From: Stylophora pistillata
Taxonomy: Eukaryota
Reading direction: 5' to 3'
Assembly: GCF_002571385.2 (NCBI RefSeq)
Contig: NW_019218048.1
Location: 51,680 to 115,679 of the forward strand
DNA length: 64,000 nt
The notes below the pieces were generated by a model that ran no database searches, was not told the origin of the DNA, and was given only the letters and a program-made list of their open reading frames with translations. Every line of letters begins with the position of its first letter. Within the stretch, counting starts at the first letter, position 1. Position numbers and translations under genes: made by a program. Below are positions 8,401-62,882 of the stretch, piece after piece.

Positions 8401-11400
8401 ATGCTATGTAGTTACGTCGGAAAGTAACTCTGAAGAAACAGTTTGCAGCTGCAATCATTTGACTCATTTTGCTGTCTTATTTGACTACAATGATAGCACG
8501 GAGGTAATTAATTAATTTTGTACCAATTTCTAGCACTGGTAATAAATTTGTGTGGCTAACTCGTCTCTCTATATTTTCGTTTCATACCATGCTACGCAGC
8601 TTTCCGAGCAGGACGAAACTGTGTTGGAGATTATTACCTGTGTAGGATTAAGCCTTTCTATTATCGGAATATTTTTAACAATAGCCTTGTACTCTTCCTT
8701 TACGTAAGTACAGTGAGTTATGATAAATAACTGATAATGTGCTCTTTTGTCAGTCTTCCAAAATGTTAGATAAAACGACACACTAGCTCAGTTCTCCCTG
8801 CAAAAAAATAATTAAAAACCTCTTAGTTGTGCCTTGGTATAAAACTAATTTAATTTACCCTTAATCAGTACAAATTGTTTTATAACATAACCAAAGTACT
8901 ATAAAGTGCGAGCTCTGATTGGTCAATTCAGCATCCACCACTTGCCCATGGGTTTACGTGGCTGAAGTGAGCAAATGCAAAGACAAGTTTTCCTCGTGCG
9001 CTCGTTTTTTCAGGTCACGTAAGGTTTGTTAAATAAAAGAAAACTCTTTTGCTACAAGTTATTCATGTTATGGTATATACAAATGGTGAACGCCACAGCG
9101 TACACTATTGAGTTATGGATGCACTTGGAGGTTTGCTAAGCACTCAAGAAGCCAGAGTCGCTCTCAACTATCACCTCGCGCGACTCTTACGCTTCTTTCG
9201 AGCTTGGCAACCTTCCGCGTGCATCCATAGCTCACTAGTGTACGCTGGTGTGTTTACTATTCGTTAAATAGAGGTCTTTCATCATCGGTGACTGTCCTAA
9301 TTAATCAGCTTACAGTCGATTGTAATTACTATAAAATAAAATTAGGAATAATGGCAACTATAAGTGATCTAAAATGTTTCTTTTTGATGCACTGAAACTA
9401 TGGTTATTTAGCTCGAATAACCCACTAATTTTCTTCGAGCTTCGTTTTCAACCATTGTTTACTTAATCTCTACCAACTTGGCTTTTTTGTTGTCTTTTGA
9501 TTCTAAGGTTCTTATTAATTTGGTTTTATTTTAGATTAGATATTTTTCCATTTGCCATTTGGTCAATTTCTATGGCCTTACAGACTTCCATCATTTTGTT
9601 TTGTTTTTAAATTAACAAATGGTAAACACCACAGCGTACACTATTGAGTTATGGATGCACTTGGGAGGTTTGCTAAGCACTCAAGAAGCTAGAGTCGCTC
9701 TCGGCTATCGCCTCGAGCGACTCTTACGCTTCTTTCGTGCTTAGCAACCTCCCGCGTGCATCCATAACTCAATAGTGTACGCTGTGGTGTTTACCATTTG
9801 TTTTATAACATAACATTGATACATTGTAGCTAAAGAGTTCCCTTTTATTTAACAAATCTTTTACGCGACCAGAAAAAACAAGCGCGCGCGGAAAAATAGT
9901 CTTTGCTCACGTCAGCAGCGTACACCCATGGGCAAATGGGGGACGCTAAATTGACCAATCAGAGCGCGCGCTTTATTTTGGTTATGTTATAATTTTATTT
10001 TGTTTGTTTTTTTATTATCATTATTAGTTTTTGTTGCTTTTATTCTTTTCATTTTCACCAGAGACGTCCCTAAACCTCTATCTCAAACTCGAATAAGCCT
10101 TTGTCTTTCACTCGGAGCTGGACAGGCAACGTTTCTCGCCGGAATAAACGCCACAGAAAACACGGTGAGAGGTTTCTTCATCCTTTCATTCGACTTACTG
10201 CCTTTTCTGTGTTTTATGAAGGATAATGAAAAACATACGTGAACTTTCTTTTTGCAGGCTGCCTGTGTTGCGGTAGCAGCTCTGATGCAGTATTTCCTGA
10301 TGGCCGCATTTTGCTGGATGCTGGTCGAGGGAATTTATCTCTACCTGTTTGTTGTGAAAGTTTACAACATCAACACCAAGATGCACATTTATCACGTTAT
10401 CGCATGGGGTATTCTTATTACTCTTTTTTATTTCATGTATTGGTACCAGTAAGATGCTTTCTGATCGCCATATTTGGTGTTAATTTATGAATAGGTCTCC
10501 CTATGAACATGGTGGCCATTTCCCTTGGGATTGCTGGTGGGAAAGAAGGAATACAAAGCTATATCAGTGACCAACAGTAAGGAATGCGTTAACAGCTTTA
10601 TTCTTCCCCTTCCCCTTCTTCTCTATTATCTATTCATTCATTTCATTTCATTTTGTGCGTGTGTGTTTTTGTTGTTGTTGTTGTTGTTGTTTTGCTTGGT
10701 TTCGTTCATATCCTGTTAAGGGTATCCTATATGCTGAACATGTTTCTTTCTCCGTTGTCTTTCGCCTTTTAGTTGCTGGCTATCCTCAAATAACAATCTG
10801 ATCTGGATTTTCGTTGCCTTTGTGGCGTTCATTGAAGTTGTGAGTTTATGATTATTTTTTGCAATTGTGATTAGTGTACCCGGACAAGTTACTGCCAAAG
10901 CTTTTTTTTTTTTTTTTCTTCAACCGTAACCATACGAATTAAACATTTGTTAATGGGATGGCCCGACACAGTTTTTACCATTTTTCATTTCTTACAATCG
11001 CCGCGGCGAAATCCTGTCGAGGTAATGTCTTCATCAAGTCTCCAAACAGTAGCTCCAAACATAGGGAAAACAAAAACATCTCACTCTATCCTTCCTTGTC
11101 AATGTCATTTCAATTTTTTTACCTGAACACGCCCAGGATATGTTGCATGGAAAAATAACATATTGAACAACATTGAAATTAAAGAGAGGATGGGGAAAGA
11201 AAAAAAAATGGAGACTAAGACCGTAAGGCTACCATTAGCGTGGTTGTAATTTCAGGTTTGATCATTTTATCTGCGACTTCTTTAGCCCAATGGATCCAGG
11301 GGCGTAACCAACGTCCTCAGTTCGGGAGTTCTATACCCCATGAACTAATCAGACAGTACTGTTTCGGCCTTCTGGGCCTCATCAGTGCAGTGCTAATGCT

Positions 11401-14090: not shown

Positions 14091-15950
14091 ACTCAATTGT
14101 TTTTAATTCGGGGACAACTTTTTCAAACAAACCAATGCTGTAGCCATGGGCACCAAAATGGGACCTAGCTATGCCAATTTCTTTTGTAGGTTTTGTCGAG
14201 CACCAATTTTTCAGCCAATACAACGACTCCAAACCTGAACTCTACGGTTGCTACATCGACGACTGTATCGGCGCCACCTCCTATACCAGAGAGGAGCTGA
14301 CTCAATTCATAACCGCAGTCAATTCTTTTCACCCGGCTCTGAAATATACCTGGGAAACTTCTGACAATTCTTTATCCTTTTTAGACATCAAAGTTTCAAT
14401 TGAAGGCAACGGTTTATGCACTAGTGTGTATTACAAACCTACAGACTCGCATAATTACTTGTTCTATTCGTCTTCGCATCCATCNNNNNNNNNNNNNNNN
14501 NNNNNNNNNNNNNNNNNNNNNNNNNNNNNNNNNNNNNNNNNNNNNNNNNNNNNNNNNNNNNNNNNNNNNNNNNNNNNNNNNNNNNNNNNNNNNNNNNNNN
14601 NNNNNNNNNNNNNNNNNNNNNNNNNNNNNNNNNNNNNNNNNNNNNNNNNNNNNNNNNNNNNNNNNNNNNNNNNNNNNNNNNNNNNNNNNNNNNNNNNNNN
14701 NNNNNNNNNNNNNNNNNNNNNNNNNNNNNNNNNNNNNNNNNNNNNNNNNNNNNNNNNNNNNNNNNNNNNNNNNNNNNNNNNNNNNNNNNNNNNNNNNNNN
14801 NNNNNNNNNNNNNNNNNNNNNNNNNNNNNNNNNNNNNNNNNNNNNNNNNNNNNNNNNNNNNNNNNNNNNNNNNNNNNNNNNNNNNNNNNNNNNNNNNNNN
14901 NNNNNNNNNNNNNNNNNNNNNNNNNNNNNNNNNNNNNNNNNNNNNNNNNNNNNNNNNNNNNNNNNNNNNNNNNNNCACGTTAAGAATTCCATTCCTTTTC
15001 TCACTTTCTAAGACTTCGTCGTTTATGTAGTGATGACTCTGACTTCCACCACAAATCAGAGTCAATGTGCCAGTTTTTCGATAACGTGGCTACCCTGATT
15101 CTATTGTTGAAGCGGGTTATCACCGCGCTCAACTTATTGATCGACATTCAGCACTACAAACGTCACGTTTCACCCTCACAACCACTCAGTTAAATCCATC
15201 ATTCTTAAAAACTTTAAATTACTTCAAAACGATCCAGAGACAAGCACTATCTTTTCGCAGCCTCTGCTTATTTTATTCAAACGCGACAAAAACAGCCAAT
15301 TTTTCGGTCAGAAACTCTTTTCAGACTAATAACCAATCCGGCACTTTTAAATGCACTCGTGCACGATGCAAAACGTGTCCTTTCATTCATAACACTGAGA
15401 AAATATCGGGACCCAAATGATCCATTAAGATCACTGATCATTTCACGTGCACCTCCGCTAATGTAATCTATTGCATAACTTAAACTTATTGCAAAAGATT
15501 TACATCGGCGAAACAGGCAAAAGACTAGGTGACCGATTCCGAGAACACCTTCGCAACGTGGAGGGGAATGACAAGTACACATCGGAACCAGTCGCTAGAA
15601 ATTTTAATTTATCCAATCATTCTAAGCAACATATGGCAATCTGCGATCTTACCTTACACTTAGGTAGCATGGAAAGCCGCAAAACCCTTGAACAAAGGCT
15701 CATCTTTCAAAGCGGCAGTTTAAATCTCACAGGTATCAAAGAATATTTTCATTAAATTCATTTATTGGTGTTTTTCTCGTTGCCATGTTCCCACCAATCA
15801 CGTAGCTCCATTTTCTACCTTTAAAAGCACAGACAACCCACAATTCCTCTATTCGCTCCGACGAAGGGCTAACGATCGAAACGTCAGCTTTTATCATCGT
15901 AACGGTGGCCAATTTACCATTTCAACTTTGTTGATATATTCAAATTATAT
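14091..15950 (+). mobile_element. 5'-truncated, degenerate Penelope-like retroelement (Neptune-like): RT, Cys linker, GIY-YIG, 3' hammerhead-like motif
   Basis: AMGTKMGPSYAN, YIDDC, FLDI, SSHP..HVKNSIP, KCTRARCKTC and IYIGETGKRLGDRFREH. CCGACGAAGGGCTAACGATCGAAACGTC at 15858-15885. Absent from paralogous spacers near 36295 and 53155. Confidence 0.93.
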
Positions 15951-20700: not shown

Positions 20701-23700
20701 AATACGACAATCAGACATAGCTTAAGAGCGACTTTTTTTCAAGGCCGCGTGAGAAGTGGCACATCGATCGAAAAATGACAATCCTCATATTTCAGTCAGA
20801 GATGCCTCATGGTGAACGTAAAAACGTGGTAAAGTATTATTTTTTTCCAGATTTGCTTCTTTATCCTAGATAACTCACGAAAACTGAAACGAGCTCATGA
20901 AAAGCGCAAAAAAAGGCAAGCTCGTATCAATTCCACAAATTTTAGGAGAGATTGAGGCATGGGGCCATTTCAATTAATTTTGAGCTCACGGAGGGCTTAT
21001 AAAAATCACCAATATTTTAAGATCCAAATATCCCATTTCGTAGCAAATTTTCAATTATTATTTCCCCACACGGTATAACTCAGAATCGGCTGAGGTTAAG
21101 CTTGTGAAAAGAGGAAATGATGCTGTTTTCGAGGAGATAAAAATTAGTTTAGGGCTGTTCATTTCCGTGCGGAAAAACCAAGATGAACTTTGTGAAAATC
21201 GTAACATCGTCTTTACGTCACGATCTAATTAGGCACCCCGTGGTTAAATCCGAAACTCCAAGCACATTTTAGAAGTTAGCGCCGTGTTCGATTACGAAAT
21301 CACCATTTTTAATCGAAGATCATTAGACTCAGTCGTGAGTTAAAGAAGACGCTGTAGTACGGTCTTGCTCGATGATTATCACTGAAACAGATGACATCGT
21401 TTGACGGAGGGACACTGAAAGTATTATGCTAAGAGAAAAAATGATGCGTCGATCAATTCAAAGCTTCAACATCGCCTCTACTCGGGAATTTTAACTTTTG
21501 AAGATTGGTTCCTGCCTCCTGGACCAAAATCATATTCAAATGTCCTGCTGCCCAGGTGCTAGATCTTAGTGGTTCTCGATGGGGTTATCTGTCAGCGGTA
21601 AAAAGGCAAAAATTAGCCTTTAGGCATAAAAGCTGCCAATTTTAACCGTGAATCCTTAGAAAAATGTAGCCGCAAAAGATAGCACTAGCAGTTATAAAAT
21701 GGCCAAGAAACGTAACCATTAGCCGTGACAGCCATTTTTCCATTGAGACCCTCATTTCAATGTCACATCTTTTGTAAAAGGCACGACCAGCAAACGATTT
21801 GACTATTCAAGCTCCACAACCTACACCTGGTAGACCCTCTATATTCTGATGGATTTTTCTAGACAAGGTTTATATTCAAAGCTATATATTCAAGGTAGAG
21901 ATAATAAAGGCGAAAAGGTGTAGGGTAACTGAAGATCTCTCAATTTTAACGGTAGATGGCTGGTCTTAGTGGTAGTTGCTTTGATAGCTCCCAATGTGTG
22001 CTTGATAATTTTTTAAGGTAGAGTATTAATTTTTAAGAGTTCTGAGCTTTTTACAATTGAACTATTAAACTAGTTGGAAATATTGCATTTGTTTAATCTT
22101 CTGCAATGGTTGTGGTTGGAAAAGCGTCGTCATGGCGCCCTAGACATCCTACAGGTGTGTAAATGGGTGGAGGCGAATTCAAAATGGGGAGTAACCATGT
22201 GATGGACTAGCATCCCATCCAGGGAGAAGGGAGAGTAGAAATATTTCGTCACCTAGGCTGTATAGGCTACTGGCCTGGCGCAGACTTTTTTTAAATTCTA
22301 ATTCGTGTATCTCCATGAACAGTGCCAGTAAGTGGTGTTTTTTTGGGGGACCCTCAGAGAAAAAACTCGAATTAAGTTATTTAAATAATTTGTGCATCCA
22401 CCCATTAATTTTTAATCATCGATATTCTTATTGATTTATTAATTTACTTTTATCTTTTGAAAATTTATTATTTTTCTCTCAGTCCGGGAATTCCGGGAAC
22501 TCCAGGTATTCCAAGTATTCAGGTTCCGGTTCCGAATTCCGGCATTCCATATTTTCCAATCTACCAAAGGTAAACCACCAGTGTTCCACTGGAAAGACTT
22601 CTAAATTTCGGTTCAAATTCCACCCCCACTTAGGTAAGGCTCAAAGGACGACAGTCAAAAGCCTGTTGGTTACCCGGGATGTTAAAGCTGCGATTGATCG
22701 GTGTATAATGTCACTGACACCAATTCAACATTTTTTGAATGTCAACATCTAATAAAAGGAATGTCAATTAGTAAGCTAAGTAAAACTAATTCGATTGAGT
22801 TAACAACCACAGCTATAAAAATAAAACAAACTTGTGATTATGTGTGACTCTTTCTCCACACTGAATTTCTAGCAGAAAAACGCAAACACATGGTAAAACG
22901 TTACAAGCACATGTATTTTCAAACAAAAAATCTCTGTGAGAAAATAAACTATCGATGCAAATACCTCGAGCTTGAAGGTTATAACAGCTTACCATTAGCT
23001 AGGACATTCTTGAAGTAAATCCGGGCGTTCTGATTAGTTCTTACATGGTCTGGATTTTGCCATGCGGACCATTTTCGCGGAAGCCGGGTCGTAAGCCATA
23101 TATTTTTGTTTGCGAAAGCCGAAAAATTAAAATTAAAGAAATTTTCCCGGACGCCATGATGAAATACTTAGTAACATCGCTTGCTTGAGCTGTATTGGGA
23201 AATATTGGCTCTCGCGGTCATTTTTGCTCGGACCTCGCCGCGCTCATTCCGTATTACCACGATTTTGGTCCAATAATCCTCAGTGCGGCCCTCACGCTTG
23301 GTTAATAGGAAGCTATTTTTTTTCGGCAACTGCTCATTTTTCTTCCTTTACACAGCCTATGTAACTAGACACATTAGGTCTCTGTAAGCAAACCACAAAT
23401 TTAAAGAAAATCCGGAACAACGTGCCGCGCCATTTTTGCAGTTTGACTAGACCGGCGCTTGGCAACATTTTTGAAATCTTCCTCGAAATGATAACTTTTA
23501 AGAACAAAAACCTGAAAAAGAGTAAGCTAGAAAATCGTTCTCAAAAATGCCACACTAATTCTAAGATGAGACCTGCGTGTTTTTCCTTTAGCATGGCTGC
23601 ATGACTTTTCTGGAATGCATGGTATCTTTGTGACCCTCTCCTTCATCCAACGCTCAAAAAACAGTGATGCCCGAAACAGATGGTCGAGGCTGATTGCTGG

Positions 23701-24276: not shown

Positions 24277-27200
24277 GGCTCAAACTAGTCGCCACTTCTC
24301 TACTAGGATAAAGGAGCACACGGAAAGCGATAAAAACTCGCATATTTTTAAGAAATTTCAACACATCTCCTTCTTGTAAGAGAAAATACTCCCTGTCTTG
24401 CTTTAATATTGTGGATTCTGCTAGCAACTCAACTGATTTCAAACTCAAAGAAGCTTTTTATATAAATGAGATCTAACCTGAACTTAACAAACAATTACAG
24501 CATTATAACACTTTTCTAGCGTTTTAGTTCGCACCTTTGATGTTTGGTATCACGTTGTAATTAGTACCCGCTTTTGTATTACATCATACTGTGAATATTT
24601 TATTCATCTACTTGTCTATTATATAATTACTTACGTTCAGGTACTCGTTGACTGAAGATGGCATAAGCATGCCGAAACATGTCTCTCTCAAAAAAGTTGT
24701 CTATTTCTTAAAATGCTTGCGTGTCACACACCAACACACAGATTGCTTCCCGTCTTCAACGTCTTCCGTAAAGAACATTTGACCTGCCGTTATAAATGAC
24801 TGAATTGTCCTCTTTCAAGTCCACAATGAAGCTCAAGTTTACCCTGGAACTTTCTTCAAACTTATAGGTGTTCGAATACGCAAAGAGAAACAGACGCCCT
24901 CTTGTCTTCTTGTAATCAAAATCGCCATGGGAAGTGGATGAGAATCGTGACGTAAGGACGATGTTGCGATTTTCACAAAGTTCAGCTTGGATTTTCCGTG
25001 CGGAAATGAAAAGCCCTAAACTAGATTTTATCTCCTCGAAACAACACCATTTCCACTTATCACGAGCTTAACCTGAACCGATTCTGAGTTAGACCGCATG
25101 GAAAAAATGATAATTGAAAATTTGCTACATGTGATATTTGGATTTTGAAATATTGATGATTTTTTAGAAACGCTCCATGAGCTCAAAATTAAATGAAATG
25201 GTCCCGTTTTAGACTAAAGCAATACCTCAATCCCTCCAAGACAAATTTGTCCAATTGTACGAGCTTGCTTTCCTTTGCGCTTTTCCTGGGCAAAGTTCAT
25301 TGCCTTTACTCGGGGCGCTGATTGCCGCCATTTTAGGCTGCCGACGCTCGTTTCAGCTTTCGTGAATTTTCTAGGATAAAGAAGCAAGTCCGGGAAAAAG
25401 AGACCTTACCACGTTGCTATGTTCACTACAAGGTATCTCTGGGCAAAATATTGAGGTTTTCAATTTTTTTGATCGTGTGCCACATTTTTCTATTTTCACT
25501 CGGTAAATTCAAGCATTCGCTCTTAAATAGGGAACACATGCATGCCATATGAAAACGAAACTTAACCGGAATCTTTCTCTTATTTAAGACCAATATGATG
25601 TCGTAAAATGCAACTTAACAAAATTCACAAAACAGAAACGAAATTTGGATATTTCAGAAAAAATCTTTGCCACAATCTCAAGAAAAGTTTGCTTATAACT
25701 GAGGGTCAATACTCAACCCGAAAATTGTGAGTGCCACTTTTCAACTGTACATTCGACTTTTCTAACGGTGTAGTAAATAGCTTTAAATAGTGGTGGGCAT
25801 GTTTTCCAGAGTGAAGATAAGCCGAAAATCTCAAAAAAGTTTCAAAATGACACATTTGGGCAAANNNNNNNNNNNNNNNNNNNNNNNNNNNNNNNNNNNN
25901 NNNNNNNNNNNNNNNNNNNNNNNNNNNNNNNNNNNNNNNNNNNNNNNNNNNNNNNNNNNNNNNNNNNNNNNNNNNNNNNNNNNNNNNNNNNNNNNNNNNN
26001 NNNNNNNNNNNNNNNNNNNNNNNNNNNNNNNNNNNNNNNNNNNNNNNNNNNNNNNNNNNNNNNNNNNNNNNNNNNNNNNNNNNNNNNNNNNNNNNNNNNN
26101 NNNNNNNNNNNNNNNNNNNNNNNNNNNNNNNNNNNNNNNNNNNNNNNNNNNNNNNNNNNNNNNNNNNNNNNNNNNNNNNNNNNNNNNNNNNNNNNNNNNN
26201 NNNNNNNNNNNNNNNNNNNNNNNNNNNNNNNNNNNNNNNNNNNNNNNNNNNNNNNNNNNNNNNNNNNNNNNNNNNNNNNNNNNNNNNNNNNNNNNNNNNN
26301 NNNNNNNNNNNNNNNNNNNNNNNNNNNNNNNNNNNNNNNNNNNNNNNNNNNNNNNNNNNNNNNNNNNNNNNNNNNNNNNNNNNNNNNNNNNNNNNNNNNN
26401 NNNNNNNNNNNNNNNNNNNNNNNNNNNNNNNNNNNNNNNNNNNNNNNNNNNNNNNNNNNNNNNNNNNNNNNNNNNNNNNNNNNNNNNNNNNNNNNNNNNN
26501 NNNNNNNNNNNNNNNNNNNNNNNNNNNNNNNNNNNNNNNNNNNNNNNNNNNNNNNNNNNNNNNNNNNNNNNNNNNNNNNNNNNNNNNNNNNNNNNNNNNN
26601 NNNNNNNNNNNNNNNNNNNNNNNNNNNNNNNNNNNNNNNNNNNNNNNNNNNNNNNNNNNNNNNNNNNNNNNNNNNNNNNNNNNNNNNNNNNNNNNNNNNN
26701 NNNNNNNNNNNNNNNNNNNNNNNNNCAATGAACCATGCTTACGATGAAAAACACTTCTAAAGCTTTGATGAATTACGCGAAATGTTTCAGTTATACGACA
26801 CCAATATGGCAGCGTAGCAACCGTTGCTAAGGTAAAGGTCACGTGGGTGAAAACCAAGAATAGAAATTTCAAGTAATAACTATTTTCATGCCCCAAGTTA
26901 ACTCTCAAAGCTGACTGCAAAGACTCTTAACTTTGAGCATGAGGATACGATAGTTTCGGGTCCCGTATATATTGTTACAGGCGTTGTCTTAAAAATAAAA
27001 GCAACAACAATAACAAGCAATTAACCTCGGAAAACTAATAGACATTTTTCTTTCTCGAAAAAAAAAATCGAATACCGATACTGGAAACCTTCCCCAAATT
27101 CTTCTCTATCTGATCACGTTAACTGACTGCTAAAAATTGAAATATTCAATGCGATGCCAAATGTTTATAGAACTGTGCAGTGATTGCGATCATGGCAGAC

Positions 27201-40000: not shown

Positions 40001-43000
40001 ATGAATGGGATTTTATCCATGGTGAGATTCAAAAGAGCAGTAAATCTAATTTCTTCTGGCATATTGGTCTGGTAAGAATAAGTGGAAACTGGACTTGGGT
40101 GAGTGGAAGACCACTGACTATTTGCAGAATGCTAAATTGCAACCTGAGTTCAAGTGGTAGAGATGAGGCTATGATAGGCACGAAGGGGGGCAACAGCCAT
40201 GTTACAAATGAACACCAGGGACAACCACATGCAAGTTCTCCGGAAGAACCACACATTTGTGAGAAAGGTATCGCTACAATACAGCTGTATCGTACACTGT
40301 AATGAAAAAAGGTGCGCATTGATAGTCTCATCGCGCCAAGAATGACACAATTATGAGCAAGTGTCTAGCTGTGTGTGTAAGCAATAGTCTCCTTTATTTC
40401 CCAAAAGTGTAGGCAAATCATTTTGCTCAACTGTAGGTCCCAGAGATACATTAATCACTTTTCAATTCTTTAAATCACAAAATTAGAACTAATTCGGGCT
40501 CAGAATGAAATATAAAAGTAGGTTAGCATCTTGAAACTTTTCCTCAGCTTTTTTTTGTATACGCTATCTAGGTTTAGAGAAATAAATTTGGCGGTTGTTG
40601 GGATGACATCGTCATATTTTTTATAGATATCGCCAAAAACGGGAATCATCGTTTAACGCAATGTGTGGTTGAGCATTAGTACTCTTCGTCTATTTGCTGG
40701 TCATCCAGACCACTTCGTGTCTCTTTTATATCATTAATAGCTTATTATTAGCCTTTTCTAGGCGTTCATTTAGTCAAAGGGACTGCAACGGCGCGTTAGT
40801 GGAGGTGGAGCGAAACAAAAAAAAGGGAGCTCAGAAACAAATCATGTTATTTTTCACTTTACCATAAATTAACGACATTTGCTATTACGCTCCTATTATT
40901 AACCCTCTGGAACAAGCTATTTCCGTATTTTCCCACTTCTGCAGTGTAAATTTGTGACATTTTTTGTATGATGTAGTTTTGATCAATAATTTTCTCATAA
41001 TAATTTATCATAATGAGGGCCCTCGCCATCGCCATCGCCATCGCCATCGCCATCGCCATCGCCATGGCCGTCGTCGTCGCCCTCGCCCTCGCCACTGTCA
41101 TTGACGTTGCCGTTGCCATCGCCCTCGCCCTCTCCCTCATCAATATCAACGTCATCGTCGTCGTCATCGTCGTCAAGGGCATTTCAGCAGCTGGTATGTG
41201 TTCCAAATAGTCGTTTACTGTCTGTGCACGTTGCTTTCAGGATTGTCACGCTTTATGAAACTACCAAACGCATTACTTTTTTTTTATTTTAATTTTAGGC
41301 AGATGTGTATGTTTCTAAATTTGGCCGAATCGATATCCCTAGAAGGAGTTCTATGCAGGTATCTGATTTTTCTATTCTAAACACATTAGCATATGATGCA
41401 TTTTTCCAAATGGTGATATATACGTGATCCTTTCGCCTAAACTGCCATTATAGCAGTATGAAATAAGCATGATAAGGCTTCTTTATTCCGTCTTCCTAAA
41501 CGGGTCTTTAACCAAAAAATATCCTTGGCACCATATGGACCTGCATGCTACACTTTTATCCTCTTGTTTGAAACGAGTTGTATCTAAGAGCTGGTCAAGT
41601 ACCAAGTGAGGGAACATTTTATGCAATTTCAGGAGGCATTAACTATGTTTGAAGACTTCACTATCAAAATCCAGAACGTCACAAAAACTAGTGAAAGCAA
41701 CCGCGGCATAAAAGAGGTCAAAGCAGCGAAAGAATCCATCTTTAAAGTGGCAGCAGCAGTTGAGAAATTTGCCCTTGATTATGGAAAGCAACACCTGAGT
41801 GAAATGAAGCCCTCAGAAAGGATAATTTATCCCAAGATGGGTGAGGTTACAGCCTTGGATTTCTTCGAATCAATTTTTCTTTTACTTACTGACTGGTTGA
41901 CAGATCTAGACGACTAAATAACCTAATTGCCTGGATCAGGCTTAGCTTATTGACATTATTATTGGACCTCATCAATACATCCGTTTTTACTTAAATCTTT
42001 TGATTACACTCGTGTATCAGCTGTGTTTATAGAAGAAAATTAAAGGCACAGTTTGAAAGGATTTAATCAGATGAAAATGGAAATTCACGGGGCTCTATTT
42101 AGGGCGATTTGAATCCTTAACTAAAGTTAAAACTCTTCAAATGGACTTTTCATTAAACTTTTGTGAAATAAGAGATTGCTCAGCAGCACCTAACGAACTC
42201 AAGGTATGAAAACTTGTCTAAATATCCAACAACATGCCTTCTTTCATGCGCAGCAATGGGTCAAAAATGGCATTTTATCCGCGCTGCGTATGAGACCAGC
42301 TTTACAAACCTTACTAGTAAAAAGTCCTTAATGGCCTCAATATTTTTTTGAGAAAGCGCACCGGAGAAGAAAACGGGTTTTTACAAATCTAGTCTGTATA
42401 GTACCTTTCCCTTATTAATCAATTTAAAAAAAATTCACACAAAAAAACAAATTGAAAAAGGTTGTAGTCGTTGAAAGATCGTGTTTATAAGGCCTGTATA
42501 TTGCTTACAAAGTATGTGCATCCAACAAGACAATAACCCATTTTATGTCCACCGCGCAACGCTTGCAATTGTTATCAAAGGTTTTTTTTTTTTTTTGCCG
42601 GACAGTTTTGGGAATTCAAAGAGGCTACAACCAGAATACGAGTGACTTCCTCTTCGAGGAACAACGATGGCAAGTGAGGATCGATATTGCCTCTTCAAAT
42701 TTTGAGGAAAATGGTTCGTACGAGCTAGTATATAAACCATTACAATTTTTAAGCCCTTTGGTTTCGCCGACCGAAGTCACTGTATCGATAAAATACTTAA
42801 AAAAATGCACTTTGCTAGTTTACCCCGTCTATTCTCTTTAATAATCCTTATGAAAATTTGAGTTATGCATGTTTTTTTTTTTCGGTTGATTGCTTTTTTG
42901 TTGTTGTTTCTTTTGGGTTTTTAAAGGATCATTGGTAGTTGCAATTGTGTACGAGGATCTACATCAAATACTTCTGACGGATCAATCTATCAGAAGTAAT

Positions 43001-46000
43001 GCAGACAACACAAGGTGATGTTATTTTCTTATTGTTCTATGTCGTTTACCTGCGAAATGCAGGACTTGGAAACACGTAGGTTCTAAGTTCAACCAGCCTG
43101 AACTTAAAACTTTTCAAAACCCAACAAGGGTTGGAAGTCTATGGTCATTACAGCTTCATGAAAATTTCGCTATAATCTACTAAAAGTATGCGATGTTACT
43201 TTCTCAGTTCTGGTTTATTTTCAAAATTAATTTTGTTTACAGGCATATCAACTCCAGGATAATGGCCGTAGCTATGGACCCAATGCCAGACAAATTGAGA
43301 GAAAATGTCAGATTAAAATTTGAAAACTTAAAGGTAACATTAACATCACTTTCTATGCGTTCTGTTGATTTATACTTACAAGATAAATTATATTTTCAGT
43401 TCTCGACAGCAGAGAAACACTGTATGTTTTGGAGTGGCTTCAGCGAAAGGTAAAAAAGAAATGCAATGCGTTACTGACCTTGCAATGGTATCTATTCTTT
43501 CTTGAATCAAATTATGGAGTAGTATGAATAAATGAAATATTTGCTAGCAAATAGGATTTCTATGTTTCTTATAACTTCCTCATTTGTTGTAGTTCTTAAG
43601 TTGCTATGAAAGCATAGACACTCCACCATTCACATGGCAACCGTCACTAGGCCCAAACCGAGCATGCGCTCTCGGCCTTGGCCATCTCAGATCACGAGAA
43701 CACTCTTGTGGGTCCAGTTGTCCCAAAACTTTCTTANAGAGAGTTTCAATTTTTTCCCCTCCCAGCCCGGCCCGGTTATACATGTGTTTGGCGTTTGTTT
43801 TGCCCTTACCTTTCCTGGGCTAAATTCAAGCAATTTCATTTTTTAATGTTGTTACTGGATTGAACTTATGTTACTTATTAAACTGGCTTTGGGTTTCTAC
43901 CCATAGTCCTTTACGTTCAACCTTGGCTTGCTTATTGACCCGTGGCCCAGCAAACAGAGCTCAGGCAAAGCAGCATGACCAGCACTTATTTTCAAGCGGG
44001 TAGTTATAAGATGAGCATAAATGTTTTAAGTAAGATGGTTTGAACGGGTTACGTTACCACTTACCTCTCCCCCAAACAATATCGAATTCTGTGCGCTTTG
44101 TTTACTTAATTTTTCCAGTTCAGACGGCTTTTCAGAGGAAGGATGTCAGGTAGTTACAACAAAAAGCAACTCTAAAGAAACAATTTGCCGCTGCAATCAT
44201 TTGACTCATTTTGCTGTTTTAATGGACTACGACGGTGGTACAAAGGTATTCGAGTAAATTTTTCCCTGCTATATAGTTTCATTGGCTCAATAAATAAAAC
44301 TCAATTTACTCTTTTAAAATTCTCCTGACACAGCTCACCGAGGAGGACGAAACGATTCAGGAAATCATCACTTACATAGGGTTATGCATTTCCATCATTG
44401 GGATACTTTTAACATTAATACTTTATTCTTGCCTCACGTAAGTATTGTACCTAAATGGTAATGAAATAGATCCTTAACTTCCCTTAAATATAATGCAGTG
44501 AAATTAGATCGACAATCTCCACGCAATTAGAAAAATGCCTGTCGGATAATTTACAAAATTCAACTATATTTCATGCTCCATCAAAAGGGGTTAAACAGTT
44601 CATGATCTCAAGATTTATGGATTTTGTCCGTGTTAGTCTTTTTCTTCGCAATATTTTCCTTTTTTGTACTTTCTGAAGCTACCTATTGATTTTTGTTTTG
44701 CTTTCCTTTCCTGTCAAGATTTAGTTGAGAAATTTTGCTTTATCTTGCCATTTAAGTTGGTAGTGCGTTGATGTTCTTTTTGCATTCAGTGTGTATTTCT
44801 TATTGTTGTTTTTGTCTTTTCTAATTCACTCTTTCTTTACTTTTCTCTCTCTAGAGACTTTCGTCAACCTCTTTCTCAAATTCGATTGAGTGTTTCAATG
44901 TCCCTCGGAGCTGGGCAGATCACCTTTCTCGCCGGAATAGATGCCACAGAAAGCAAAGTTAGTGGCCTCTCTTTCTATCCATTGAATTAGTTAACTGTTT
45001 GCACCGTTGATATCTTGTCCAAAGAATCAGGATAAAAACTGGACAAAAATCTTTCTTTCCACAGGCTGTCTGTGTAGTAGTGGCTGCTCTTATGCAGTAT
45101 TTCCTTATGGCTGCATTCTGTTGGATGTTGGTCGAAGGAATTTACCTCTACATGTTTGTGGTGAAAGTTCACAACATCAACACCAAGATGTGCATGTATC
45201 ACGTCATCTCATGGGGTAAGTTCGAATTATTTTACATCATGCGCTGGTTGCTATAACCATGCATTTAGATCTCCATCTGACTTCCTACTATCTTTATGGG
45301 CAGGTTTTCCCATGATCATGGTGGCCATTTCACTTTGCATCGCTGCTGGGAAAGAAGGAATACAAAGTTATACCAGTGATAAATAGTAATTATTATTCTT
45401 CTGCATTATTCTTCCCCTTCTCCTTCTCTCTCTTCTTTTAATACATGACATTTTTTTCTTTCCCTTTTTTCCTTTGGCTTTTATATATCCTGATATGAGT
45501 AGTATGTTGCGCCTGACTGGCAACTTCGTTGTGTAGGTGTACGAGGGGTTATTAGGGTAAAGGGTTAAAATTAGCGTTGGTGTACGAGGGGGTTATTAGG
45601 GTTAGGGTTAAAATTCATATAGCTGTACGAGGGGTTTTTAAGGTTTTAGGGTTGTAGGAGGGGTTAGCGTTAAATTTCGCTTAGGTTCGTGAGTAGGGTT
45701 TTCAAAATTTAACGGTACAAAGATAACGAAAGAATCCAAGATTGCGGCGAGATTAATTTGCAACATCTGTTTTTTGCATATGGTTTATTTGTTCAATCTG
45801 CACGATATTTGAGTTGTAATTAGGTAACATAAGCTAGAAAAGCTGTCATCATGTCTTTGTATAATTGATGGAAAGTAGTTTGTTCTCCCACGTTGGAATC
45901 ATAGGTTTCAATTTCATCAATGTATTTAGTCACTTGTCTGCGTATTTCACAAAGATCTTGCGTGATAGCTTTTTCTTTTACAATGGCAAATAATTCTTCT

Positions 46001-49000
46001 AGGACGGCTCCGGTCCACTGGGGATTCTGTCCAATATCTTCGTCCAAACAGTTGTTTTTTCAGATGACATGGTGTATGAAGTGTTTGTAGAATGTAAGAT
46101 GAAGCTATACATAAATATGTTTGAACGTAAATGTCACTCGAGTATTGATTGACAAGCTATCATCATGTCTCCGTACAATTGATGGAAAGTAGATTGTTAT
46201 CCGACGTTGGAATCATAGGTTTAGGGCAACTTCCGCGCGGTCTGGGTCTGAGTGATTCGACCGAGTGGGTTCTAATTAAATATTCATACGGCGTAGGTGC
46301 GTGAGGGGGGTTTTAGGGTGTATTCATGCGGCGTAGGTGAACGAGGGGATTAGGGTTGTTGGGGATTAGGGTTGTTGGGGCTAGGGTTGTTTGGGAGGTT
46401 AGGGTTAGATTTCACGTTGGTTCGTGTGTAGGGTTTTTTCGCATCTTATTTTAAAAAATAACGGTTTTCTGAAAACAATGGGAACAAAATCCATTCATCC
46501 ATAAATCCATCCATCCCAAAAGTCCATCCACGTATGGATTAGGGCGACACCAGAGCTATTTCATTGACTCCCTGTCTGTCCAAAGTCCTTGACCAGGATT
46601 TATTCAACGCTTTTAATCTGTGTTTCCTTCCTACATCTCTCATACATTTCCTTCTAATTTTCAAGTGTGGATACTCTATTGTCCTAGAACCGGTATGGGT
46701 AGTTGCGTGATACCGTGTATCATTCATAATAAACACCCATATTTCGTCTATCCACTTTGGTTTCTAGAGTGCACTTATTATTTTTAAATTGTCCTGCTAA
46801 AACGCTTCTCTCTATTTCTTCTTCTTTTAGTACACACCATTCGCATTGACCGCAGTCACAGTACAAATCGTAAAAGTCAGACATTATAATACTGACCAAG
46901 AGTTCATAGCGACAAGGTCTACCCGAACACTTTGACAGCTTTTCAATCCCTTTGTCTTACGATCGACGATCGTAGATCTCTTACATTTTTTAAACGTAAA
47001 AGTAATACGTCCTAAATAACCTGTACCACATGCGTGTCAAAACCTTTTGGGACTCTTATAAATACAACTTCTGGTTACAGCCTTAGTCGGTTAGATTAGT
47101 ATGTCTAACCCACGATACCCAAACGCGTAATATAGGGACCATTCTCTTTTCCCTGTGTTGTGTGACAATAAACATTACATATGCGAAAACAGTGTGTTAG
47201 AGTTAACCCCTCCGCCATCTTGGATTCTTTTGATCCCATTGTTTTGAGGAAACCGTTATTTTTTAAAATAAGATGCGAAAAAACCCTACACACGAACCAA
47301 CGTGAAATCTAATCCTAACCTCCCCAACAACCCTAANCCCCAACAACCCTAATCCCCTCGTTCACCTACGGCGCATGAATTAACCTTAAAATCCCCCTCG
47401 CGCACCTACGCCGTATGAATATTTAATTAGAACCCACTTGGTCGAGTCACTCAGACCCAGACCGCGCGGAAGTCTCCCGAAACCTATGATTCCAACGTGG
47501 GAGAACAATCCACTTTCCATCAATTGTACAGAGACGTGATGACAGCTTGTCAATCAATACTCGAGTGACATTTACTTTCAAACACATTTATGTATAGCTT
47601 CATCTTACATTCTACAAACACTTCATACACCATGTCATCTGAAAAACAACTGTTTGGACGAAGATATTGAACAGAATCCCCAGTGGGCCGAAGCCGTCCT
47701 AGACGAATTATTTGCCATTGTAAAAGAAAAAGCTATCACGCAAGATCTCCGTGAAATACGCAGACAAGTGACTAAACACATTGATGAAATTGAAACCTAT
47801 GATTCCAACGTGGGAGAACAAACTACTTTCCATCAATTATACAAAGACATGATGACACCTTTTCTAGCTTATGTTACCTATTTATAACTCAAATATCGTG
47901 CAGAGTGAACAAATAAACCATATGCATAAAACAGATCCTGCAAATTAATCTCGCCGTCATCTTGGATTCTTTCGATATCTTTTTACCGTTAAATTTTGAA
48001 AACCCTACTCACGAACCTACGCGAAATTTAACGCTAACCCCTCCTACAACCCTAAAACCTTAAAAACCCCTCGTATAGCTACATGAATTTTAACCCTAAC
48101 CCTAATAACCCCCTCGTACACCAACGCTAATTTTAACCCTAACCCTAATAACCCCACGTACACCTACACGGTATGAATAAAGTAACCTCGACCGAGACAC
48201 TCGGACCCAGGCCTCTACGAAGTTGCCAGTCAGGCGCAACATACTACTGATATGGGTATCGTTTCATTCGCTGCAACTTGTTTTTCTTTCTTGTCTTTCA
48301 TTTCTCCGTGTTTAGCTGTTGGCTATCCTCAAGTAAGAACCTTATCTGGATATTCGTCGCCTTTGTGACGTTCATTGAAGTAGTGAGTTTATGATTAGCC
48401 TACGCGATTGTAGCTGGTATACTCATACTCGTTATTACCAGATACTTCTTTCTCTTTCACGAACATTAAAAGATGAATTCCATATTTCTGAAAGTGATGA
48501 TCCTTTCACGGTATTCGCCATCTTCCCTATCCTACATGTACTTACCCACAAGACACTTTGGGTTTTGCTACAGAATGCAGGGAAGCTAATCTCACTTGAA
48601 CTTAATAAGGGCTCGTTATTGCGGAGAAGTCCTGATAAGACAATCTGCTCAAAGCCTAAGATGGATTAATCAAATCTGCAAACGTTTGCTGCCTAATTAA
48701 AGAGAAGAACCTTCTCCCCCTTCTTTCTCAGTTTGATTTAATTTTTTTGTTTTGGTTTTACTTTGACATGGAACAAACTCTTTCCGCGCCAGAGTAGCAC
48801 ATGAAACAGCACTAAAAGAGAGGAGGGAGCAGGAAGAGTTGGAGAGATTAGATAGATAGCAAAACACTATATTAACTAATTCAATAAAGAATTGGTTAGT
48901 TTTGGTTCGCAGGTCGGGAGTTGTGTTTCTGGTACAGGATTCAGTTTGTTTTCTCCTTGCACTACGCTTGTTATCAAGCGAATAACGTGATTGGCTATTC

Positions 49001-59900: not shown

Positions 59901-62882
59901 CTCGCCCCCGCGCTTGCCCTCCCCTTCACCTTCACCATCACCATCACAGCTGCTGTCACCTTCGCTGTCATCAATAACAACATCATCGCCATCGCCATCG
60001 CCATCGCCATCGCTCTCGCTCTCCCTATCGCATGCACCCCCGCCATCGCCCTCGCCCTCGCCCTCGCCCTCTCCCTCGCCGTTGATATCGCTGTCGCTAC
60101 CGCCGTCGCCCTCTTCCTTGCTCTCGCCCTCGCCCTCGCCCTCCCCCTTGCCCTTGCTCTCGCTCTCGCTCTCGCTCTCGCTCTCGCCCTCGCCATCGCC
60201 ATCGCCATCGCCTTCGCCATCGCCATCGCCATCGCCAACGCCATCGCCATCGCCGTCGCCATCTCCAACGCCTTCGTTATCGTCATCGCCATCACTCTCA
60301 CCATCATCAACATCCACATCTTCATCATCGTTAACGGCAGTTAAGCAGCTGGTATGTACAATATGCAGTCATTTACTTTTTCTCTGCAGGTTACCTTTTA
60401 TGGTATTTTGTGCGTCATAATTTTAACAAACACTTTTTTATAATTGTAGGCAGCTGAGTATGTTTCTGCACTTGGCAGAATTAATATCATGAGAAGACAA
60501 TCTCTGCAGGTATCTATATATTTTAATTTAAAGGCATTCACGCATGATACGCGATTTGAAAAGGTAATGAATAAATATGTGATTCTCTGACACAACCCAC
60601 AGCTTTAAGCAGCTTGACACGAGTTGTGTATTTGAGCGTGGCAAAAAACATAGTATTGGTGCATTTTATGTAATTTCAGGAGGCAGTAAAGATGTTGGAA
60701 GACTTCACTATCAAAATCCAGAACGTCATAAGAACTATTGCAGGCAAGCCCAACGTAGAAGAAGTGAAAGGAGCAATAGTATCCACGCTTAAAGTAGCAG
60801 CAGCCGTTGAGAAATTTGCCCTTGATTACGGAAAGCAACACCTGAATGACATGAAGCTAATGAGGATCATTTATACCAAAATGGGTGAGGCTACAGCCTT
60901 GTTCTCGGATTTCTTAAAATCCATTTCTGTTACTTACTGACTGGTTGACAGGCGACTGAATAGTCTGATTGCCTAGATTAGGCTTAAGTAATAGACGTTA
61001 TTGTTGGACCTCATCGTTGTAATCGTTTTTGTTCTAATCTTTTCATGCCTTATCTTTATTAAGGATTTCAATCCTTAATAAAGTTAAAACTCTCCAATTG
61101 GTCTTTTTATGAGAATTTTGTGAAATAATAGATTGCTTAGCAGCACTTAACGAACTCCAGTTATCAAAATGTGTCTAGATTTCTAACAAAATGATTTCTT
61201 TTATGCGCAGCACTGGCTCAAAATTGGTATTTTGCTTAGGATGCGCATAACAGCAACAATTCTAACCTTCCAATACTGTCAGAGAAAACGCACCGGTGAA
61301 GGAAACGCGCTTTTACAATTTTAGTCTATGTAGTGCTGTTCACTTGTTAATCAATCTAAAAAAATTTTGGAAAAAATAAATTTTTGAAAAAGGTTGTATC
61401 CTTAGAAAGGTTGAGTCATTAGAAGGCCTGTACATTACATACAATGCATGTGCATCCAACAAGAAACGAAACGTATGCAATTGTCATTAAATAATTTTTT
61501 TTGCTCGACAGTTTTGGGAATTCAAAAAGTCTACTGCCAGAATGCGAGTGACTTCCTTTTCGAGGAAGAACGATGGCAAACGAGAATCGATATTGCCTCT
61601 TCAAATTCTGAGGAAAAGGGTTTGTACGAACTAGCATGTTAACAATTGCAAGTTTTAAATTACCTTGGTTCCGCCAACTGAAGTGGCCGTAGCGATAAAA
61701 CTCATAAAACAAATGCACTATGCTAATTTACACTGTCTATTTTCTTTGATCATCCGCCTTCCTTATGTCACATACCTCAGAACCTGATGAAAATTTGAAT
61801 TTTGTGTATTTGTTTTGGTTGACTGATTTTTCGTTGTTGTTTCTTTGGGGGTTTTAAAGGATCATTTGTGGTAGCGATTGTGAACGAGGATCTACATGAC
61901 TTACTTGTGATGTATCAATCTATCAGAAGTAAAGCAGACAACACAAGGTGATGTTATTTTCGTGTTCTTCTATGTCGTTTACCTGAGAAACACATAACAC
62001 GGAACGGCGTAAGATCTAAGTTCAACCAACCTGAACTTAAAAACTTTCCAAAAGCCCAGGAAGGGTTGGAAGTATTTGGTCATTTCAGCTTCATGAAAAA
62101 TTTGCTTGAATCTAACAGAAGTAGACGATGTTTCCGGCTTCATTAGTTCTGGTTCATTTTACAATAAAATTTTGTTTATAGGTTTATCAACTCCAAGATA
62201 ATAGCAGTAGCCATGGACCCCAAACCAGACAAATTGCGAGAAAATGTCATCTTAAAGTTCGAAAACCTAAAGGTAACATTATTATCAGTTTCTATGCGTT
62301 GTATTGATTTATACTTACATGATAAATCATATTATCAGGTGTTGACAGCAGAGAAGCACTGTATGTATTGGAGTGGCCTCAGCGAAAGGTGAAAAAAAAA
62401 TGCAATACGTTATTGACCTTGCAATGGTAATTATTCTTTTTTTAATCAAATCATGGAGAATTATTAATAAATTTTTGCAGTCAAGTGGTTTGAGCGGGTG
62501 AAAACTTGCCTCTCCCCCAAACAATATTGAATTCTTTGCCCTTTGTTGACTATTTTTTTCCAGGTCAGACGGCTTTTCAGAGGAAGGATGCCAAGTAGTT
62601 ACATCAAAAAGTAACTCCGAAGAAATAGTTTGTAGCTGCAATCATTTGACTCATTTTGCTGTCTTAATGGACTACGACGGTAGCACAAAGGTATTCGAGT
62701 AAATTTTTCCCTATTCAATAATTTCATTGGCTCAATTAATAAATCTAAATTTTCTATTTTGTTTTTTTCTTGACACAGCTCACAGAGGAGGACGAAACGA
62801 TTTTGAAAATCATCACTTACATAGGATTATGCATTTCTATAATTGGGATACTTTTAACATCAATACTTTATTCTTGCTTCAC
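53949..62882 (+). CDS. Adhesion GPCR copy B4, partial (signal, CTLD, Cys-rich domain, long Ser/Pro stalk, GAIN/GPS, TM1); remaining exons not in window
   Basis: Exons: 53949/53973-54006, 55246-55281, 55787-56173 (CTLD), 58410-58790 (Cys-rich), 59837-60351 (Ser/Pro), 60450-60509, 60680-60884, 61512-61619, 61860-61947, 62182-62272, 62339-62388, 62564-62690 (CSCNHL/THFAVLM), 62779-62882 (TM1). All phases are compatible. Confidence 0.9.
54650..54915 (-). mobile_element. Probable Penelope terminal fragment with a hammerhead-like motif
   Basis: Minus strand CTTGAAAATGACCTCGAAGAGGTCGAAACGTC (54742-54711). The segment is absent from the B3 intron. Confidence 0.5.
56470..57861. mobile_element. Kolobok-like non-autonomous element with a nested MITE (about 56925-57253)
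   Basis: TTAC|GGTTGCTCGTACCAGTT...AACCGGTACGATCCACC|TTAA, with an internal inverted repeat pair of about 95 bp. Absent from the B3 intron. Confidence 0.7.
59880..60330 (+). repeat. Coding hexamer microsatellite (TCGCCA/TCGCCC/TCGCTC)n encoding the Ser-Pro stalk; shorter version at 41020-41175
   Basis: Directly visible tandem hexamers inside the stalk exon. Confidence 0.9.

Follow-up and report, generated by a model that had tools for sequence, protein, structure and literature searches.

A short Polinton-like element whose terminal inverted repeats each enclose a further terminal module, in a receptor intron of the coral Stylophora pistillata

We analysed a stretch of 64,000 nucleotides (nt) of the Stylophora pistillata genome (NCBI RefSeq assembly GCF_002571385.2, contig NW_019218048.1, positions 51,680 to 115,679, forward strand; hereafter the window), and in it a fold-back element which an initial annotation, made from the letters alone, had described as a miniature relative of Polintons, also called Mavericks. 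Here we show that the element is a true insertion from a multi-copy family, and that a buried, apparently former terminus present in both of its arms is a real and unusual feature of it. It is probably a non-autonomous Polinton/Maverick derivative, in which a composite end of about 1 kb likely arose a single time before being duplicated onto the opposite side. The boundaries of the element and its insertion site are as follows.

45498..48248, no strand assigned: whole element, 2751 bp, with (AGT)2//(ACT)2 ends
45492..45497, plus strand: left target-site duplication GATATG; paralogous introns have one 6-mer at this position
48249..48254, plus strand: right target-site duplication GATATG
45386..48315, plus strand: host intron with the element, in a 7tm_2 secretin/adhesion-type receptor gene

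The element begins with AGTAGT and ends with ACTACT, its terminal 32 nt form a perfect inverted repeat, and the target-site duplication (TSD) is perfect, the chance of such a 6-mer at a given place being about 1 in 3200. The exon upstream of the host intron matches 7tm_2 (Pfam, E 3.5e-13). Without the insertion the host intron measures 173 nt, as compared to 196 and 192 nt for the paralogous introns, and in both paralogous introns of the window (2/2) a single 6-mer stands between the equivalent flanking bases. Since these introns hold one 6-mer at the insertion spot, 45498-48248 is a true insertion. The window was also compared with public sequencing runs (9 of the 24 listed are labelled coral metagenome), four of which, DNA and RNA, were examined in detail, whereas X10-X20, with small shares, entered by their labels only; depth below means summed contig depth, not copy number. 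The filled site was crossed at its right end by a contig of run X1 (record 7, 0 differences) and at its left end by one of X7 (record 18); X1 could be the sample of origin. An empty-site joint (45501->48261) was found in contigs from two of the four runs (X4 and X7), but because these are about 10% diverged from the window they are probably paralogs and no proof of an insertion polymorphism. RNA reads of the host exons in X21 carry many differences from the window and are paralog-derived as well. No longer allele at the insertion site was seen in the contigs, all of them short, and no further copy of the element was found within the window.

The two arms and their modules, which carry the main finding, are arranged as follows.

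45498..46489, plus strand: left arm, 992 bp, without 46 nt after 45529 as compared to the right arm
47228..48248, minus strand: right arm, 1021 bp, with a loss of 15 nt within the inner 16-bp repeats
45498..45803, plus strand: outer terminal module on the left, containing TTAGGG-rich repeats of 43 bp at 45534-45653
47898..48248, minus strand: right outer terminal module, with 43-bp repeats at 48048-48170
46223..46489, plus strand: embedded inner terminal module on the left; its outermost ~21 nt are absent, and it breaks off at 46489
47155..47478, minus strand: inner terminal module on the right, intact as far as and including the AAGATGGCGG motif (47213), and extending into the core
47479..47551, plus strand: partial repeat of the 3' part of the small gene, 90% alike, adjoining the inner module with the fusion point at 47478/47479
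46151..46222, minus strand: mirror partial repeat of the 3' part of the small gene, with the fusion point at 46222/46223

From the end inward, each arm consists of the outer module (about 350 bp), an outward-pointing small gene, a spacer, a 73-nt gene repeat and the inner module, and together the arms make up 73% of the element length. Inner and outer modules are identical at 225 of 281 ungapped columns (80%), with an alignment score of 187, the highest score among 200 shuffles being 42. The arms differ from each other by 47 substitutions in 974 aligned columns (4.8%), plus four gaps of 46, 15, 1 and 1 nt, which is far below the 20% difference between inner and outer module. This divergence is even along the arm (16/338 in the outer module, 16/385 in the gene region and 15/251 in the inner module), and the gene repeat is fused to the inner module at the identical base on both sides. 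Given one and the same fusion point on both sides and an even divergence, the composite end likely formed a single time, with later copying onto the other arm. The left inner module stops abruptly at 46489, and the right one continues into the core to ~47155. A codon comparison of the 73-nt repeat with the gene itself (1 synonymous and 5 non-synonymous codons) was uninformative.

The initial annotation had given the AGTAGT...ACTACT termini, the perfect 6-bp TSD and terminal inverted repeats (TIRs) of about 1 kb, and all three agree with the boundaries found here. Its two diverged terminal modules per arm are likewise borne out by the 80% identity, with the correction that the left outer copy is incomplete: the 46 nt missing after 45529 include the GGGTC.GAGTG...ATTCATAC part of the outer motif that had been quoted. 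What had been called a coding fragment between the modules is indeed of coding origin, and is a whole small gene, now broken, together with the 73-nt repeat of its 3' part. The AAGATGGCGG motif at 47213 is presumably YY1-like. Hexamers TTAGGG/CCCTAA number 17 in the 2751-bp element and 12 in the other 59,895 bp, nearly all of those in the element lying in the terminal modules, and the element ends therefore carry telomere-like repeats.

Relatives in the public runs bear on the origin of the inner module. The core is the most deeply covered part of the element, its depth being 71 times the right-flank median in X1 and 28 times in X4, and no bin of the element falls below the flank; the element belongs to a clearly repeated, multi-copy family. 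The joints, of which 15 of 50 were listed, were read in short contigs 85% alike to the window, their short sides measuring 24-39 nt. Among them 47242->48001, 47408->48187 and 47913->47202 (short sides 24-37 nt) place core or gene beside a single module, and the inner type continues to an outer terminal segment. As relatives show such single-module ends, the inner module was likely once the terminus of a sister subfamily. Among the 24 of 1879 pieces listed, a single contig, in one run, crosses the junction of left arm and core (X4 record 13, 46438-46649, 2 differences). Its depth of 60, with flank contigs of the window's haplotype at 76 and 82, fits one copy and not an amplified 2.75-kb family, and no second insertion site of the 2.75-kb unit was seen among the rows listed. 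Relatives are also transcribed: in the stranded RNA of X21 (about 2% of the run), 46663-47266 is read from the minus strand starting near the inner edge of the module, with a first-mate signal of 34 on the plus and 2.4 on the minus strand, opposite to the host exons (1.2 vs 14.7). Most of these reads are less than 95% alike to the window, and the transcripts therefore come from other copies. In the piece 46512-46662 the RNA leans to the opposite strand.

The small orphan gene lies between outer and inner module in each arm.

47632..47899, plus strand: small orphan helical gene, broken; points outward, with a frame break near the 5' end, an early stop at 47885 and AATAAA at 47912
45799..46070, minus strand: left-arm counterpart of the small gene, in mirror orientation and likewise broken, with an early stop near 45820

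It belongs to a family of proteins of about 95 amino acids, with seven relatives among 1.84 billion representatives searched and 13 of 1059 candidates in a second search; the relatives are 53-90% identical and none of them is named. The proteins P0004 (inner-like) and P0017 (intermediate) come from copies in which the small gene runs directly into one terminal module, and P0001, P0008 and P0010 have the N-terminal frame arrangement seen in the window. The predicted model of the natural relative P0015 has four helices (predicted local distance difference test score, pLDDT, 65; predicted template modelling score, pTM, 0.42). In viral_contigs none of the candidates (0/5 and 0/77) was a relative, and ESM Atlas gave no usable lead. 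One of 49 candidates in genome_contigs (L006, a Bacteroidales contig, 33 residues, 45%) was rejected as a weak match.

Between the arms lies the core.

46490..47227, no strand assigned: core, 738 nt, in pieces 46511-46592, 46641-46965 and 46984-47227
46720-46884 (with CxCxxCxxC) and 46539-46763, minus strand: short broken core open reading frames (ORFs)

Its length agrees with the roughly 730 bp initially annotated as unique, but the uniqueness holds in the window only, this being the deepest part of the element in the runs, and the right inner module reaches into it. Loose ends at 46511, 46592, 46641, 46965 and 46984 were found in both DNA and RNA runs (among 24 of 537 listed), and the core is thus a patchwork of deletions, other copies retaining sequence that is absent here. 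With X placed at stops, the six frames of the whole element gave no Pfam family (E<=0.1), and there was no Rfam match; the longest stop-free frame is 114 amino acids. The annotated absence of polymerase, integrase and capsid genes is in keeping with this result. The core ORFs have no homologues and no PHROG match, and folded as single-stranded DNA the core is unremarkable (z -1.3). At 46806, inside the CxCxxCxxC ORF, a small indel separates most related copies from the window, and the frame is likely broken here.

The element is very probably derived from a Polinton. The Maverick signature in vertebrates consists of (AGT)2//(ACT)2 or (AG)3//(CT)3 ends, a 6-bp TSD and TIRs of 46-1447 bp, the upper length being reached in intact elements (PMC8097293), and autonomous Polintons in general have a size of 13-25 kb, the core genes and TIRs of 100-1500 bp (PMC6431247; bioRxiv 10.1101/2023.08.22.554363). 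Polintoviruses are reported from 30 of 30 stony coral genomes under a 10-50 kb filter (PMC11131425). The element shares with the autonomous Polintons of animals, including stony corals, the (AGT)2//(ACT)2 ends, the 6-bp TSD, the TIR length (992/1021 bp) and small accessory genes near the ends (PMC8097293, PMC11131425). It differs from them in its length of 2751 bp, in the absence of pPolB, integrase, ATPase, protease and capsid genes (0 Pfam families in 6/6 frames) and in the second terminal module inside each TIR. It is thus not an autonomous member, and is likely a non-autonomous Polinton derivative.

Several results weigh against this assignment or against the proposed origin of the inner module. 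The assignment draws only on the end motif, the TSD and the TIRs as read in the sequence, and no link by sequence to any Polinton gene was found. The relatives of the small gene are unnamed and without a Pfam match above cut-off (DUF4441 appears below cut-off in 5 of 16 members), and for the P0015 model Foldseek found nothing in BFVD or PDB at E<=0.001. An autonomous element with these ends was not found in the viral, prokaryotic and JGI collections, the only ones scanned. The joints with single modules, coming as they do from short contigs with 24-39 nt on the short side, could be repeat artefacts. Scans with terminal and module motifs gave 0, 1, 5 and 0 matches in viral_contigs, 3 in metagenome_contigs and 1 and 6 in genome_contigs; the 17 loci obtained by motif scan were taken as chance, none extending past 18-24 matching bases.

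Polinton ends without core genes, with long TIRs, are also known from non-autonomous Polintons and TIR-only remnants. By naming convention, the N in Polinton-1N1_DR stands for non-autonomous. An element of that name is listed for zebrafish (PMC9341505), and Polinton_CE_TIR remnants of C. elegans have TIRs of 744 bp (bioRxiv 10.1101/2024.01.15.575659). In the anole, non-autonomous Polinton copies are described as apparently absent (PMC3014272), and in PMC5499653 the term non-autonomous is applied to Tlr1. The element in the window probably differs from such remnants in that its TIR appears to fuse the ends of two subfamilies with a gene inside. Copy-back defective viral genomes and adenovirus mutants with embedded inverted terminal repeats (ITRs) resemble it in carrying one end region twice, inverted, with an internal former origin, whereas the element here is integrated and decaying. 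Adenovirus mutants with embedded ITRs exist, and were not among the papers found in the literature searched. In the same mostly open literature, with most subscription papers outside its reach, no work dealing with copy-back or embedded ends in Polintons was found among the papers listed, nor any that speaks of a non-autonomous Maverick or a miniature Polinton, and Polinton together with defective interfering turned up only an unrelated review.

In the history that we favour, the starting material would have been ends such as those of the relatives, with one terminal module beside the small helical gene or core sequence. The gene-bearing end of one subfamily would then have joined a sister subfamily's terminal module, which would have lost its outermost ~21 nt and become the inner module. 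The fused end would then have been copied to the opposite end, most simply by pairing of the TIRs in a racket or panhandle, or by gene conversion; a racket-like single-stranded Polinton intermediate is a proposed mechanism (PMC4196379). Several deletions would have removed the interior at some stage, the missing sequence being evident. A Polinton-type integrase presumably placed the element in the receptor intron, making the observed 6-bp duplication, and the element has since decayed, as seen in the 4.8% between the arms, the broken genes and the loss of 46 nt from the left end. Movement as a short unit would require polymerase and integrase in trans.

A closely allied possibility, to which we give appreciable but lesser weight, is that a longer, even full-length Polinton with a two-module TIR integrated and later lost its interior in place, the short form never having moved. 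This overlaps the favoured model and differs from it only in the timing of interior loss. The several separate deletion points in the core and the near single-copy depth of the diagnostic junction agree with it, as does the age shown by the 4.8% arm divergence; the host intron is short, so that length would presumably be selected against, and most vertebrate Mavericks are degraded (PMC8097293). Decay in place is at odds with two intact ends and no polymerase, integrase or capsid remnant in 6/6 frames, and no longer allele was seen at the site, where contigs are short. The element could also be a true satellite, in which case a 2.75-kb unit would have arisen by copy-back from one end of a replicating Polinton and multiplied in trans into a family, much as defective-interfering genomes do. 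We consider this unlikely. The arms do form 73% of the element with the gene-bearing end present twice, all element parts are multi-copy, and the frame arrangement shared by P0001, P0008 and P0010 with the window suggests propagation of an altered lineage. A template switch would explain why the right inner module runs on into the core and the left one ends abruptly at 46489, but a deletion would give the same picture. The junction depth of 60 against flanks of 76 and 82, the divergence of most core contigs at deletion points and the lack of a second insertion site among the rows listed speak against amplification. Arm length is no sign of copy-back because 1-kb TIRs are normal for Polintons (up to 1447 bp in vertebrates, 744 bp in C. 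elegans). The annotated origin-duplicated Polinton derivative is retained as to end type, absence of core genes, true insertion and duplicated modules, but copy-back is so far not supported over deletion in a parent already bearing the composite TIR, and neither is mobilisation of the 2.75-kb unit in trans or any defective-interfering or satellite behaviour. The clean TSD shows joint integration of the two ends, which need not have stood 2.75 kb apart at the time.

Two further explanations would remove the element from Polintons or from the genome altogether. Foldback elements and MITEs (miniature inverted-repeat transposable elements) of DDE transposons have a small non-coding core between long or modular TIRs, and the long TIRs with tandem sub-repeats and the absence of any Polinton gene would suit a foldback-type or other cut-and-paste DDE derivative unrelated to Polintons, with AG...CT ends and a 6-bp TSD by chance. 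Foldback families, as far as is known, have TSD lengths other than 6 bp. This explanation is improbable, since the exact (AGT)2//(ACT)2 ends with a 6-bp TSD are the Maverick signature (PMC8097293), there is no transposase remnant in 6/6 frames, and small transcribed orphan genes beside the TIR resemble Maverick accessory regions. The initial annotation had named ends of a DDE family with another TSD length as one refuting case, and the Maverick-type termini without transposase remnant go against that case, no direct comparison with a transposon library being part of this result. An assembly artefact, with the mirror arms or the inner module produced from mis-joined repeat copies, is more improbable still. 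The assembly has N runs, with a single N at 47337 inside the element, no listed contig spans the element, and the fusion points at 46222 and 47478 are bridged by none of the contigs listed; but the perfect TSD equals the single target of the paralogs, the arms differ at 47 positions, and independent contigs cross the right end (X1), the left end (X7) and the left arm/core junction (X4).

That Polintons replicate by way of a paired-TIR intermediate has been modelled from the analysis of sequences and is not a measured fact (PMC4196379), and a fusion junction present in both TIRs is the type of trace that the model predicts. It is conceivable, though doubtful, that the element represents a lineage of defective genomes which a coral Polinton gave rise to in nature, the buried former origin at the same point in both arms recording end-to-end panhandle copying between two subfamilies, and the two-origin short unit being replicated and integrated in trans; if true, it would provide sequence evidence for the so far untested racket model and for satellites competing with their helper. 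As a single decayed copy, the element would be a remnant of the ordinary kind, with one oddity. Surveys based on core genes and a 10-50 kb range (PMC11131425) miss such elements, and Polinton-derived DNA in corals may be undercounted.

Other features were noted in the window. Positions 2800-64000 consist of paralogous units in tandem, at least three (~3.8-14, 27-37 and 39-56 kb) and a fourth that starts near 55 kb; these are 65-88% alike, carry exons of C-type lectin and 7tm_2 type, and constitute an expanded lectin/adhesion-receptor locus. A reverse-transcriptase-like frame with a YIDD motif at 14144-14484, which we take to be Penelope-like, runs into an assembly gap and has no Pfam match at E<=0.01. 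Three related palindromic, MITE-like repeats of ~190 bp lie at 2005-2192, 9079-9265 and 9614-9802. Inverted repeats at 20756-21224 and 24944-25483, ~80% alike and ~4 kb apart, may be a second old TIR element, and (GCCATC)n / (CATCGC)n hexamer arrays occupy paralogous positions at 41019-41094 and 59984-60293.

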